From a virus (Duplodnaviria > Caudoviricetes): a stretch of 27,183 nucleotides of DNA. The DNA is taken from positions 1-27,183 of IMG/VR virus record IMGVR_UViG_3300033076_001413; one strand, given 5' to 3'. Both the position numbers and the translations under genes were made by a program. Each line of letters opens with the position of its first letter. Within the stretch, counting starts at the first letter, position 1. This document shows, piece by piece, positions 93 to 9,997 of this stretch. The notes under the pieces were generated by a model, which saw only the letters and a program-made list of their open reading frames with translations, searched no databases and was not told where the DNA came from.

Positions 93-443
93 ATGAATGA
101 AACAACCGAAAAACTAATCCGTGACCTCGCCGAAAAACTCGGCACAACAGCCGAACACCTGTGGGGTGTCCTCATCCGCCAAGCGCCAATCACTGCTATC
201 ACCGACCTGCTCCAAGTCCTGATACTCGCAGCGGTGTGCGTGTATGGAGGTCGCCGCCTGATGCGATGGCACAAGAAACTGCAAGAATCGGGCGATGCTG
301 ACCATCCAGGATTCGTGCTGACCTACATCGGCTTCGTGGTGCTGCTCTGCATCACAATCATCTGCGCGCTTTGTAGCGTGTCTGGAATAGTGACCGCCTT
401 CAATAACCCGGAATACTGGGCACTCAAGCAAATCGTGAAATGA
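93..443 (+). CDS. Cassette 1 gene: small membrane protein (2 predicted TM helices), phage hypothetical
   Basis: 116 aa ORF with two hydrophobic stretches and C-terminal NPEYWAL; A-rich sequence before the ATG. Confidence 0.8.
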   Translation: MNETTEKLIRDLAEKLGTTAEHLWGVLIRQAPITAITDLLQVLILAAVCVYGGRRLMRWHKKLQESGDADHPGFVLTYIGFVVLLCITIICALCSVSGIVTAFNNPEYWALKQIVK

Positions 444-487
444 TGTGGAACGCCAAGCTCAGCGACGGCGCGAAAACCTATGAGTGA
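443..487 (+). CDS. Putative 14-aa relay mini-ORF (MWNAKLSDGAKTYE) crossing into attC
   Basis: TGATG overlap with the upstream stop at 441-445; its TGA (485-487) lies just past the ATG of the next gene (480). Confidence 0.4.
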   Translation: MWNAKLSDGAKTYE

Positions 488-550
488 CGATTGCAACAAG
501 AGCGCGGAAGTGAACGGCGGCACGCCGTTCGCTGAAGCGCGTGGTTATGC
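445..550 (-). repeat. attC: attC site (106 bp)
   Basis: - strand: R'' GCATAAC, 5-nt spacer, GCTTCAGCGAACGGCG ... CGCCGTCGCTGAGC, spacer TTGGC, R' GTTCCAC; the stem has two extrahelical bases. Confidence 0.9.
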
Positions 551-737
551 CGCACACGTCCGCCGACTCCAAGAGCAGAACCGCCTGCTGGCCGAGTGCC
601 TCGCGGACGAAAGGCGACTCCGCAAGCAAGCCTATGCGTGGTATCAGAAGCGACTCCAAAGCCGCTGGTGGTCACTGATGGATATGGTGCTGCTTTCTGT
701 GCGGCATAACGTCCGAGATGAGCCACGCGGGAAATAA
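480..737 (+). CDS. Cassette 2 gene: hypothetical coiled-coil protein (85 aa)
   Basis: ATG lies in the attC loop (480); TAA lies inside the next attC, 1 nt before the next ATG. Confidence 0.65.
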   Translation: MSDDCNKSAEVNGGTPFAEARGYAAHVRRLQEQNRLLAECLADERRLRKQAYAWYQKRLQSRWWSLMDMVLLSVRHNVRDEPRGK

Positions 738-793
738 TATGAGCACCACCAAAAAAGCAGCGAGCCGCGTTGGCTCTGGGGAGTTGGTTCGGC
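704..793 (-). repeat. attC: attC site (90 bp)
   Basis: - strand: GCCGAAC CAACT CCCCAGAGCCAACGCGG ... CCGCGTGGCTCATCTCGGAC GTTATGC; L boxes somewhat degenerate. Confidence 0.82.
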
Positions 794-972
794 GGCTGTG
801 GCGCGTAGAATTTCAGACGGGGTTTGTGCAATTCGAAAGCGTAATTGCCGACGAAGCATTCGCCCGCCGCTGGGCTTTGAAATCCAAAGGCGCACCGAGC
901 CACGAGCGGATCACAAAAGTCACGAGCGTCGAAGCGCCGCCGAACGACAAGCTGAGAGATGCCGCCACATGA
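739..972 (+). CDS. Cassette 3 gene: hypothetical protein (77 aa)
   Basis: ATG 739 in the attC loop right after TAA 735-737; stop forms an ATGA overlap with the next gene inside the next attC. Confidence 0.65.
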   Translation: MSTTKKAASRVGSGELVRRLWRVEFQTGFVQFESVIADEAFARRWALKSKGAPSHERITKVTSVEAPPNDKLRDAAT

Positions 973-1030
973 ACGCTCCGAATAACGCGCAAGACGCGAT
1001 GGCGGCATTCTCTCCAGCGACTGGTTCGGG
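939..1030 (-). repeat. attC: attC site (92 bp)
   Basis: - strand: R'' CCCGAAC, CAGTC, L'' GCTGGAGA, GAATGCCGCC ... GGCGGCATC, L' TCTCAGC, TTGTC, R' GTTCGGC; extrahelical G and A. Confidence 0.92.
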
Positions 1031-1622
1031 GACGGTCGTAAACAAATTTCGCGTTGATGATGCAAGGGTAGCATGTCCGCTTTTCCAAGCGGAACACGGC
1101 GGTTCGACTCCGACCTCAACGCTCCAATTCCGAATCGTGGAAATCGAGATGCGACGGGCAGCGCAACTGAATCGGCAGTGGCATAGCGTGCTGCCGAAAA
1201 CCTACCTCGCAAACCTCAACGGCAACATCTGCAAGGTCGCGTATGCGGCAGAGTTCGAGGGCGTGGCATACGCGGTGGCAATCTGGACGACTCCAATCGC
1301 GGCAAACCGCATGGCCGATGGGTGGAATGCGCTCGAACTCCGTCGGCTGGCAATCGCTGACGATGCTCCAAAGAACACGGCAAGCCGGATGCTGGCCGTG
1401 ATGACTCGACTGATAAAAGCCAAGTGGCCGCAAATCAATCGGCTTGTCAGCTACCAGGCGGAGAAACACCATGCGGGAACAATCTACAAGGCCGCCGGCT
1501 GGACGAATGCAGCGACTTCGGATGCTAAGACGTGGCATCCTGGCCGGCTGCGTGCGGCACAACAAACCGACTCCGCAAAGGTGCGCTGGGAATACACCCT
1601 GCGCGAGTCCCCGAACAAGTGA
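969..1622 (+). CDS. Cassette 4 gene: Mom-like (XF1762-type, GNAT-fold) DNA adenine hypermodification protein; alternative starts GTG 1137 / ATG 1149
   Basis: Motifs LNRQWH, ELRRLAI.DDAPKN.ASR, LVSY, H.GTIYKAAGW and K.RW are typical of Mom-family proteins. Confidence 0.8.
   Translation: MNAPNNAQDAMAAFSPATGSGTVVNKFRVDDARVACPLFQAEHGGSTPTSTLQFRIVEIEMRRAAQLNRQWHSVLPKTYLANLNGNICKVAYAAEFEGVAYAVAIWTTPIAANRMADGWNALELRRLAIADDAPKNTASRMLAVMTRLIKAKWPQINRLVSYQAEKHHAGTIYKAAGWTNAATSDAKTWHPGRLRAAQQTDSAKVRWEYTLRESPNK
1051..1126 (+). tRNA. Non-canonical tRNA-Gly-like element (8-nt anticodon loop, bulged T-stem, encoded CCA)
   Basis: Acceptor GCGTTGA/TCAACGC, D-stem ATGC/GCAT, anticodon stem TCCGC/GCGGA with loop TTTTCCAA, T-arm GGCGG-TTCGACT-CCG(A)CC, discriminator T + CCA. 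Confidence 0.8.
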
Positions 1623-5004: not shown

Positions 5005-5940
5005 ATGTTTCGCCCGACACCACATCCCGTTTTGCGAGTGCCGACGCCGGAGGAGATGGCGCGCATGGACGCGGCGGCGTTGCGCCAGGGGCTCATCGAG
5101 CGCGAGCAACGCATCAAGCGCGAACAGGCGGACCCCGGCCGGTTCTGCATCGAGCCGCCGGTGTGGCAGGTGTGCGATGCGATTCTCGGGTTCGACTGGG
5201 TGCCGTTGGAGACGGCGGACCGCATCCGCCATAAGTTCGGGTTCAAGAAGCCGAAGGATGTGTTGCTCATCAACGGCGGGAATCGTGGCGGCAAGACGCA
5301 TTACGCGGCCACACGCGTGATGAAGGTGCTGCGACGCAAGCCCGCGGCGCGCGCGTGGTGCTGCCACAGCACGCAGACGATGAGCATCCAGTATCATCAC
5401 GCCTTGCTCTACCAGATGCTGCCGCCGGAATGGCGCGGGGCGGATGTGCGCTCGAAGACGGCTTACATCGCCTACAAGCAGAAGACGGGCTTCAGTGAAG
5501 GCAAGTTTGTGTTGCCGCCCATGGACGGCGCCGCGCGCGGGAGTGAATGCGAATTCAAGAGTTACGACCAGAACATCGAGACGATCGAGGGCGGTAACTT
5601 GGACATCATTTGGGATGACGAGCTGGTGCCGCCGGACTGGGTGGAGACGCAGGAATTCCGCATCGCCGAGCGCAACGGCAAAATCATCATCACGTTCACG
5701 CCGATCAAGGGTTACAGCGCCACGGTGAAGCTTTTCCAGGACGGTGCGCGGGTGTGCGCGGAAAGCATCGGGTATCTGCTGCCCAAGGATGGCGGGCCGC
5801 CGGATGTGGCGCGGGCCTTAGGGCTCACGGAGGAGCAGTTGGCGGAATTGTATGCGGCCGAGCAGGGCGAGGAACTGGATGGCAAACGCGTGGTGCGCGC
5901 GGCCAGTGCGCCGCAAAGCGTGCCGGAGAGGTTTGTGTGA
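5005..5940 (+). CDS. terL: Terminase large subunit, N-terminal ATPase part
   Basis: Walker A GGNRGGKT, Walker B IIWDDE, coupling motif ITFTP. Confidence 0.88.
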   Translation: MFRPTPHPVLRVPTPEEMARMDAAALRQGLIEREQRIKREQADPGRFCIEPPVWQVCDAILGFDWVPLETADRIRHKFGFKKPKDVLLINGGNRGGKTHYAATRVMKVLRRKPAARAWCCHSTQTMSIQYHHALLYQMLPPEWRGADVRSKTAYIAYKQKTGFSEGKFVLPPMDGAARGSECEFKSYDQNIETIEGGNLDIIWDDELVPPDWVETQEFRIAERNGKIIITFTPIKGYSATVKLFQDGARVCAESIGYLLPKDGGPPDVARALGLTEEQLAELYAAEQGEELDGKRVVRAASAPQSVPERFV

Positions 5941-7457: not shown

Positions 7458-7760
7458 ATGAACACGAATATGAAACAGAAGCGGGCGAAGGGAACGAAGA
7501 GGGCCGAGGCGAAGGAGTTGATTGACCAGTGGGGCAGGTTGCGATTTCTGGCGCTCAAGGCCGCGATGGATTGCCAGTTGACCACGCTACGCCTGGGCGT
7601 GTTGAAAATGCGCTTGGCGGAGGCCAGCAAATCCCCGTTGGCAGTGGCACTGCTGGCGGAGCTGGACATCACGCTGAAGGAACAGGAGCCCGTGGCAAAG
7701 GATTTGAACGAACTAGGCGACCGGATACTGGCGTTGCAAGTCAGGGTGAGTAATCCATGA
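7458..7760 (+). CDS. Hypothetical helical protein (start may be 7470)
   Basis: About 100 aa amphipathic-helix ORF flanked by a 19-bp inverted repeat. Confidence 0.6.
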   Translation: MNTNMKQKRAKGTKRAEAKELIDQWGRLRFLALKAAMDCQLTTLRLGVLKMRLAEASKSPLAVALLAELDITLKEQEPVAKDLNELGDRILALQVRVSNP

Positions 7761-7795
7761 AAATTCGTGCAATTCGTGTCTAACAACAAAACTTT

Positions 7796-9997
7796 ATGAC
7801 GAACACTACTTATGCAGCGACGGTCGATGGCGAGACGCCGGAGACGATTCACCAGACGCACGATGACGGCAGCCCGGCGGAGGTGACCACCGATGAACTG
7901 GCCCGGTTCAAGAGCGAGATTCAATATCTCACGGGCGAGAACGCGCGCGAAGTGGCGTGGCGGCGGCAGTGGGCGGATGACATCCGCTTTTGCCGGTGGG
8001 AAGGGCAATCCCCCACGGGCTTGAAGAAGGCCGAGGAATTGAACGGCGAGGAACCGTTTCCCTTCGAGGGCGCGCGGGACAGCCGCGTGCGCAGCGCCGA
8101 TTCACTGGTGAACGAACATGTGCTGGTGCTCACCAGCGCGGCGTTCGGCGCGAGCATCAACGTGAAGCCGATGGAAAGCCAGGACGTGGGATGGAGCGAC
8201 CGCATGAACACGCTTGCGCGTTACATGCTCTACACGCAGCTGGGCGCGGACTGGGTGCGCGAAATCTGGCGCGTGTGCCAATACCAGGAAGGCGATTCTC
8301 CCGCCGCCGCCGTGCTGGGCGTGTGGTGGCGCAAGGAAGAGGCGTTGCGCATGGAAACAGTGAGCATCGATACGATCATCGAGAAAGCGGCGATGGCGAC
8401 AAGGCCGCCGCAGGAGGAACTGCCGAAATTCGTGGCGGCGATGAAGGCGCTGTTTCTGGACCCGGCCCAGGAAGCGATGGCGGCGGAATGGTTGCAGGGA
8501 TTGTATCCGGACTTGAAGATGCCCAAGGCGAAAAGGGCGGCCCGGCAATTGCGAGAGCAAAACGAAGCGTCCTTCCCGGTGCGTTACGTGGCGGTGAACC
8601 GGCCGGAGGTGTGCGCGTATCGATTGTTCCAAGACATCTTCGTGCCGCTGAACACCAGCCAGCCGCGGCGGGCGCGCTGCTATTTCCTGCGCGAATGGTT
8701 GACGGAAGTGGATTTGCACGCGCGGCGGGTGAGCCATGGCTACAGCGAGGAGTTTGTGAAGGAAGTGCTGTTGCACGAGGGCAAGACGGCGTTCCAGATT
8801 TACGAGCGCAACGCGGTGAGCGGCGATGGCGTAAACAATTTGCAGTTTGTGCAACAGAGCGCGGATCTGCACAAGGGCGAATACGAAGTCATCACGGCGG
8901 TTTACAAGGCGGTGAACGAGGATGGTGTGCCGGGCATTTACACGGTGCCGTTCTCGAACTTCGTGGAGTTCGCCGCGAAGGACCGCGAGTTGCAGGATTA
9001 CGCGCACGGGGAATATCCGTTTGTGTGGTTCAGCCGCGAGATTCTGACCAACCGCGTGGTGGACAGCCGCGGTGTGCCGGAACTGGAACAGACCGACCAA
9101 CAGCTGGAGAAGTTTGTGTTCGACAGCTTCAGCGACAACGCCAGCTTGGCCGCCCTGCCGATGATTGAAACGCCGCGTTCCCGCGGGAAGCTGCAACTTG
9201 TCATCGGACCGCTCAAGCAGCAGAAGGTGGATCGGCCGGGGCAGATCCGTTACATCGAAGCGCCGCAGTATCCGGCCGTCGTGGAGAAGCTGTTGCTCAT
9301 GCTGCGCGAACGGCGGAACGATTACTGGGGACGCATCGCCGCGACCACGCCGCCGGCCTTGACGCAGCTGCACCAGCAGGGACGCGTGAATTTGTTCCTC
9401 GCGTCGCTCAAGGATGCGATCAAGCAACTCCTGCAACTGTGCCAGCAATATCTTACGGACGAGGAATTGAAACGCATCACGGGCGCCAACAACATGGCGG
9501 TGGCGCGGAGCCGCGAGGAGATTCAAGGCATGTTCGATGTGGACATGAGTTTCAGCACAATCGGGCTGGACTTCGATCAACTGGTGAAGGTGGCGGAGGT
9601 GATTTCGCGTTACGTGTTGCCGATCGATTCGCTGAACACGGTGCAGCGCGATTTGCTCGTGCAATGGTTGCTCAACGCGTTCAACCCGAACTTGGCGGAC
9701 CGCGTGTGGCGTCCGAGTCAATCGGCCAACGCGGACGAGCAGAAGGACGAGAGCATCAACTTTGCGCGCATCGTGGCCGGGGACGAGCCGCCGATGCAGG
9801 CGGAGGGCCAGAACTTCGGGCTGCGCTTGCAGACGTTGCAGGACATCATCGCCAAGAATCCCGAGGTGGAACGCAAGCTGACGCCGCTGAGCCGGCAGAT
9901 GTTGGAGGCGCGGATGAAACATCTGCAAAACCAGGTGCAACAACAGCAGAACGCGGTGATCGGGGCGCGGGTGGGAGAGAGTGTGTTGGGAGGGTAG
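7796..9997 (+). CDS. Portal protein (P22-like size, Q-rich C-terminal coil)
   Basis: 733 aa, lies between terminase and scaffold/capsid; HGEYPFV.F and SRGVPEL portal-like motifs. Confidence 0.82.
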   Translation: MTNTTYAATVDGETPETIHQTHDDGSPAEVTTDELARFKSEIQYLTGENAREVAWRRQWADDIRFCRWEGQSPTGLKKAEELNGEEPFPFEGARDSRVRSADSLVNEHVLVLTSAAFGASINVKPMESQDVGWSDRMNTLARYMLYTQLGADWVREIWRVCQYQEGDSPAAAVLGVWWRKEEALRMETVSIDTIIEKAAMATRPPQEELPKFVAAMKALFLDPAQEAMAAEWLQGLYPDLKMPKAKRAARQLREQNEASFPVRYVAVNRPEVCAYRLFQDIFVPLNTSQPRRARCYFLREWLTEVDLHARRVSHGYSEEFVKEVLLHEGKTAFQIYERNAVSGDGVNNLQFVQQSADLHKGEYEVITAVYKAVNEDGVPGIYTVPFSNFVEFAAKDRELQDYAHGEYPFVWFSREILTNRVVDSRGVPELEQTDQQLEKFVFDSFSDNASLAALPMIETPRSRGKLQLVIGPLKQQKVDRPGQIRYIEAPQYPAVVEKLLLMLRERRNDYWGRIAATTPPALTQLHQQGRVNLFLASLKDAIKQLLQLCQQYLTDEELKRITGANNMAVARSREEIQGMFDVDMSFSTIGLDFDQLVKVAEVISRYVLPIDSLNTVQRDLLVQWLLNAFNPNLADRVWRPSQSANADEQKDESINFARIVAGDEPPMQAEGQNFGLRLQTLQDIIAKNPEVERKLTPLSRQMLEARMKHLQNQVQQQQNAVIGARVGESVLGG

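Follow-up and report, generated by a model that had tools for sequence, protein, structure and literature searches.

A phage integron in a new layout, with bottom-strand cassette genes that appear to cross the attC crossover triplet in one reading frame

Judged from its sequence, the array described here is a genuine integron with a new layout: it lies in a phage, its cassette genes on the attC bottom strand cross the AAC crossover triplet in a fixed frame, the next site supplies the stop and mostly an adjacent start, and translation probably terminates and re-initiates within the hairpin in any cassette order. The stretch analyzed (the window; positions 1–27,183 of IMG/VR record IMGVR_UViG_3300033076_001413, 27,183 nucleotides) is a phage contig on which family searches identified major head protein, terminase large subunit and helicase genes. 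The integron on it is complete: besides IntI and attI it has three intact attC sites, and the contig start truncates one more. That the contig start falls inside the array is indicated by the 3' arm of this fourth attC site at ∼39–62 and by pairing of its flank with the bases before AAC 449.

Architecture of the integron and its relatives

The integrase gene (1645–2595, + strand) is intact. Its product matches NCBIfam model TIGR02249 over positions 2–313 of 315 with 270.8 bits, above the cut-off of 265, and the catalytic-type residues R139, K164, H264, R267, H290 and Y299 are all present and invariant across 55 aligned rows; residues ∼190–250 are presumably the IntI-specific insertion. Relatives of this integrase in species genomes come mostly from Verrucomicrobiota bins, the nearest being 79% identical, and this phylum is therefore the likely host of the phage. 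The integrases of deposited phages (three records) are just 35–36% identical to it. A quick tree of 62 integrases interleaves canonical and inverted arrays with five changes, and on this tree a single integrase clade for the inverted arrays was set aside.

The attI simple site (1610–1628, − strand) consists of an L box, a 5-base spacer and an R box, with the crossover AAC at 1614–1616 on the + strand. Similar sites also precede intI in relatives, and the neighbours at the attI AAC vary among loci; in contigs of public run X2 other cassettes abut attI at 1611/1613. Both the segment 1614–1645 and the attI of relatives look like an abbreviated attC, in which AAC is followed by a spacer, an L-like box, a short loop and a partial partner, and the start of intI stands at the position of the would-be GTT box, as though intI were the last cassette gene. 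A crude pattern for such an attC remnant matched 17/42 attI sites, a count that has no null for comparison.

On the + strand each attC site reads AAC, arm, loop, an arm bearing two extra bases, and GTT. The extra bases sit on the arm opposite AAC, with a conserved T in 189/198 training sites; the first extrahelical base is C in 153/198 sites, as opposed to G in model attC sites. Extra bases opposite AAC are described as the mark of the bottom, recombining strand of attC (PMC5027507). A pairing heuristic run on both strands of the loci placed nearly all sites on the + strand, and an attC profile trained on 198 heuristic sites and applied to 210 sequences, including duplicate contigs, returned 340 sites in bottom form on the strand of intI (+), five on the − strand and none in shuffled sequence. 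This orientation of the sites toward intI is the canonical relation, and the inversion of intI that defines Treponema-type integrons is not seen. In place of the canonical layout, in which a top-strand ORF stands ahead of its attC, all four genes of the window lie on the bottom strand. By these readings the integron skeleton is canonical and the cassette genes are reversed, being on the attC bottom strand and pointing at intI.

The cassette genes and attC sites of the array all read on the + strand. The fourth attC is represented by its 3' arm and GTT box (39–62), the 5' arm being lost at the contig start, and the ten bases after GTT 60–62 match the reverse complement of the ten before AAC 449 at 8/10 positions; on these two grounds the gene at 93–443 is a true cassette. 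This first gene encodes a membrane protein (phrog_1486, E 4e-14) with its own stop at 441–443, and a TGATG overlap (441–445) leads into a 14-codon restart ORF (443–487), in which AAC 449 is the codon for an Asn and which ends within attC site A (449–546, bottom-strand form; detector score 46.0, pairs 14/14). Gene 2 (480–737) starts in the loop of site A and ends in site B (708–789; score 26.0, pairs 11/14), the flank of which pairs at 10/10 positions with the body behind site A. Gene 3 (739–972), which has a second in-frame ATG at 718 and no match in protein family searches, starts in site B and ends in site C (943–1026; score 42.6, pairs 14/14), a hairpin predicted both as DNA and as RNA with an ATGA stop/start overlap in its loop. 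Gene 4 (969–1622) encodes a Mom-family DNA modification protein (PF25680, E 1.3e-13; phrog_1384, E 1e-19) and terminates in attI. Among the cargo products of the window, one is Mom-like, one is a membrane protein and two are without assigned function, and no relatives of genes 3 and 4 were found among the viral contigs searched. At the bounds of the cassette units in the window, 10, 7 and 7 leading flank bases pair. A scan for one promoter type, sigma-70, gave no match on either strand of 1–2700, where the contig begins inside the array.

Relatives were collected by integrase searches with one integrase family, giving 209 loci with 261 cassette intervals, 208 of them distinct and 174 with paired flanks, and gene strand was assigned by a codon model. 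Among 89 viral cassettes 77 have their gene on the + strand, which is the attC bottom strand, none on the − strand and 12 are uncallable; the metagenome cassettes divide into 22 +, 4 − and 4 uncallable, and the 55 genome cassettes into 16 +, 23 − and 16 uncallable. The layout of chromosomal relatives is mostly canonical. In a flank survey that covered 50/92 listed ORFs, inverted genome loci were flanked by prophage genes in 3/4 tested cases (Mu Gam, Mu-type AAA and RecT), whereas the flanks of canonical loci held cellular genes, save for one Mu-transposase domain. The position of the inverted arrays of L142, L165 and L173 amid prophage genes indicates that Mu-like prophages also carry such integrons. 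As to cargo, DNA methyltransferases or Mom-like proteins account for 5/14 of the relatives' products that match PHROGs, and HNH families for 2/14. Extra attC clusters occur downstream of intI or apart from it on contigs L048, L127, L163 and L206, and an 18-base pattern search across the loci returned three-mismatch chance matches only.

Two loci carry one cassette twice. In L003 the copies (5566–5819 and 7717–7970) are each bounded by AAC at both ends, which indicates that the hairpin moves with the gene behind it; in L160 the copies, at 2270 and 5179, end at AAC. Such a duplication is what excision followed by reinsertion at attI would be expected to produce. Furthermore, contigs from public runs, which represent two studies and may include related phages, part from the window at or beside AAC triplets (453, 942/943, 946 and 1611/1613). 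No excision joints were found in four contig sets, a kind of data that drops rare forms. One join in the window itself is doubtful. Run X1 holds a fraction of 0.92 of the sampled window words, and an X1 contig identical over 55–546 continues into another body; the 524–757 body carries a different loop in X1 and X2, and no contig in X1 bridges the loop of site A to the 547–707 body. The join at 524–546 lies within a 23-base arm common to both and may have arisen as a chimera of the assembly or by natural exchange; it bears only on the pairing of ATG 480 with the body of gene 2, and the frame rule is untouched.

Reading frame across the crossover triplet

The original prediction held that AAC is read in frame as Asn at every junction of the window and that each downstream site supplies an in-frame stop near the next start. 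All of its coordinates were verified in the sequence: TGGAAC at 446–451, CATAAC at 705–710, CCGAAC at 940–945 and 1611–1616, TGA 485–487 with ATG 480, TAA 735–737 with ATG 739, ATGA 969–972 and TGA 1620–1622. The triplets at 449, 708, 943 and 1614 are codon-aligned in the ORF 443–487 and in genes 480–737, 739–972 and 969–1622, respectively; for cassette 1 it is the mini-ORF that carries the frame over the junction, as predicted, and not the gene at 93–443, which is off the AAC frame and ends ahead of the junction. Locally, three genes in the AAC frame have a chance probability of 1 in 27.

The comparison of this frame with the random expectation of 1/3 in a larger set used the 155 cassettes with stricter flank pairing, which form 147 clusters, with 107 representatives in inverted loci. 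Counted independently of any coding model, frames that stay open over 90% of the cassette body and cross the junction number 63 in the AAC frame and four and seven in the others, and 15 further open frames end with a stop that overlaps the junction. With these 15 counted against the rule, 63/89 open frames obey it (p 6e-13 versus 1/3), so the frame is not random. Canonical loci have just two such frames in 37. The codon model classed 44 of the 107 representatives as read-through, 44/44 of these being in the AAC frame, and 37 as ending at a stop of their own, while the other 26 were too weak to call; in 31/31 loci every read-through gene is in this frame. In addition, 14/49 frame-0 products match PHROGs, compared with 1/72 stretches in other frames, and 11/47 read-through genes pass a TAAC without use of its TAA. 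At the distal array ends (n = 42), 12 genes cross in frame 0, two restart, eight do neither and 20 are uncallable.

One cassette gene for a C-5 DNA methylase (L039:5115–6008) is overlapped, in a different frame, by 801 bases of open sequence (L039:5173–5973) that match another methyltransferase PHROG (E 1e-29) and no Pfam family; both frames may be coding, or the family may be built on mis-called frames.

The stop of the AAC frame lies inside the next site in 158/160 distinct sites of inverted loci as opposed to 32/64 in canonical loci, and an ATGA stands at that stop in 63/160 and 1/64, respectively. The own gene of the cassette was callable in 93/107 representatives, on which the coupling counts are based; in these the AAC frame stops within the site in 93/93 (shuffled interiors: mean 60, maximum 71) and never fuses into the cassette's own gene (0/93). 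Frame lock and built-in termination are thus well supported as sequence features of these arrays.

The frame could be inherited from a small number of founder sites or cassettes that were copied often, with translation not under selection at present. All sites do form one sequence family, and the loci were all collected via one integrase family. However, the 155 cassettes fall into 147 unrelated clusters, chromosomal arrays with the same site family carry no frame signal, and the restart ATGs occur at numerous offsets within the variable body of the cassette; such a legacy is very unlikely.

Restarts, coupling and protein tails

Counted in bases from where the stop codon begins, the next start in the window is at −5, +4 and −1 for the three attC sites and at +25 for attI; stop and start are thus adjacent or overlapping at 3/3 attC junctions and not at attI, where the stop (1620–1622) is 22 bases upstream of the intI start at 1645, with no overlap. 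Among the callable sites of relatives, an ATG in the frame of the gene lies within 10 bases of the stop in 58/93 (permutation mean 26.9, maximum 41), and the exact four-base stop/start overlap occurs in 36/93 (permutation mean 5.9, maximum 14); in 33/93 no start is reachable from the frame-0 stop, with 25 starting only past the site. The attI stops the AAC frame ahead of intI in 42/42 loci, and its stop falls within −8 to +10 of the intI start in just 8/42, on which count attI–intI coupling as a rule was rejected. The predicted stop near each next start is thus supported at most attC sites and unsupported as a general rule.

Where a gene terminates by itself, a nearby ATG reopens the AAC frame in 21/38 cassettes, compared with none in the other free frame taken as a control, and 17/38 have no frame-0 ATG restart. 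The mini-ORF of the window is therefore one instance of a recurrent device, although part of the 21 restart ORFs are second genes and not mini-ORFs. A relay of mini-ORFs across the hairpin was rejected, with a gain of only two sites in 93. The stop–start offsets of the three whole cassettes of the window are identical in every order, as follows from the frame rule. As far as stop–start placement goes, the claim that any order yields a terminated and coupled operon fits the three whole cassettes of the window, whereas the 33 uncoupled sites limit it among relatives, and translational coupling of the cassettes is probable but partial.

It had also been proposed that the attC hairpin hides the next start until ribosomes melt it. 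Opening the start region is predicted to cost 7.1 kcal/mol for coupled starts, against 6.8 kcal/mol for 22 ordinary starts of the window (p 0.26), and occlusion as a general rule is not borne out; relative to uncoupled starts (5.0 kcal/mol) the coupled starts are costlier (p 0.013), and relative to intI starts they are not (p 0.39). The values at sites A, B and C are 7.9, 7.5 and 22.2 kcal/mol, and a hidden start is predicted at site C only.

These figures bear on the main rival, protection from polarity with independent initiation, in which read-through mainly keeps ribosomes on structured attC RNA, avoiding polarity or decay, initiation on the next gene is de novo in an A-rich loop and the overlaps reflect lack of space. 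The stop-in-site rule (158/160) is indeed stricter than coupling (58/93), coupled starts are A-rich with SD-like motifs at only 10/58, their opening cost is ordinary, and untranslated stretches in class 1 integrons are reported to lower downstream mRNA (PMC11511950). The excess of four-base overlaps over the permutations, however, is beyond what crowding in the loop would give, and this rival is considered unlikely, at roughly one chance in five.

Termination and re-initiation in the hairpin remain the preferred and probable reading, which would work as follows. IntI would recombine folded bottom strands, cutting out and inserting cassettes at AAC. The array would be transcribed toward intI from a phage promoter upstream, outside the window, and with this direction of transcription new cassettes would be added to the operon at its far end. 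One frame would be kept by selection because it guides the ribosome along the 5' arm and into the loop, and there translation would stop and, in most cassettes, restart; tails and arm-encoded leaders would be tolerated by-products.

The tails do vary with the neighbour, as had been foreseen: the duplicated L003 cassette has a tail of 21 residues before attC and of three before attI, and site-encoded C-terminal tails have a median of nine residues. In L210, gene 2 has a homolog that lacks an attC (68% identical over 53 amino acids) and has a different N-terminus; its C-terminus is just short of the point where gene 2 enters the site, which suggests that the site-encoded protein ends are add-ons. 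That the frame rule exists to diversify C-termini through tail exchange is most improbable: the two L003 tails and the range from 2 to 28 amino acids would suit it, but the attC-free homolog ends ahead of the tail, and the restart mini-ORFs hold the frame yet have no protein body to diversify.

Relation to known systems and meaning

Integrons are usually presented as host elements, with cassettes read from the Pc promoter in intI or attI in the direction away from the integrase and each gene followed by an attC hairpin. The phage array has in common with canonical integrons, both class 1 mobile and sedentary chromosomal, the IntI family, a simple attI site by the 5' end of intI, and attC hairpins with extra bases opposite AAC in normal orientation to intI. 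It differs from them in that the bottom-strand genes point at intI, the hairpin precedes the gene on the message, and a gene usually starts in its own site and ends in that of its neighbour.

The nearest translational parallels are the ORF-11, ORF-17 and ORF-18 of attI1, in which an ORF runs across the crossover, is terminated by a stop in the inserted cassette and couples translation; a hairpin block is likewise described as being relieved by short ORFs in attC (PMC8876359). As presented there, the ORF-11 type is a top-strand leader peptide that serves some cassettes, whereas here the cargo genes themselves cross, on the other strand and in one frame common to unrelated cassettes. In class 1 integrons, deletion of attC altered downstream expression in only a minority of ten cassettes in the experiments described in PMC11511950. 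Phage genomes have been reported to carry integrons and CALINs with DNA methyltransferase cargo (Qi et al., 2023; PMC9892861); the complete integrons described there are captured host or class 1 fragments, unlike the present one, and the main-text portions covered contain no inversion, start-codon or frame rule, while its supplements may show strands. In the 'reverse' integrons of Treponema, intI is inverted with respect to attC (PMC4889954; 10.1101/2022.02.06.479319). As these are described, intI and the cassette genes are co-directional, as here; unlike them, the phage array keeps the canonical relation of intI to attC and has its genes flipped. No description of bottom-strand, frame-locked cassettes was found in the literature searched, in which subscription journals are thinly covered.

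A wider reading may be offered tentatively, at somewhat less than even chances: phages have turned the integron into a common plug-in standard for translation, in which unrelated genes (DNA methylases, Mom, HNH and others) give up start and stop signals of their own for those of the hairpin, in one frame, and dock in any order, translation needs that of the neighbour and tails are swapped, and the content of the array could set the level of the integrase, since intI is last on the message.

The same recombinase and attC families thus appear to serve phages with reversed logic, and the recombination site would itself bear translation signals. The array indicates a route, driven by an enzyme, to the mosaic that small accessory genes form in phage genomes, and cassettes are unlikely to be expressed once moved between phage and host arrays. 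It offers a direct test of the old question of whether attC controls downstream translation, and it would be a natural design for modular operons that are independent of order.
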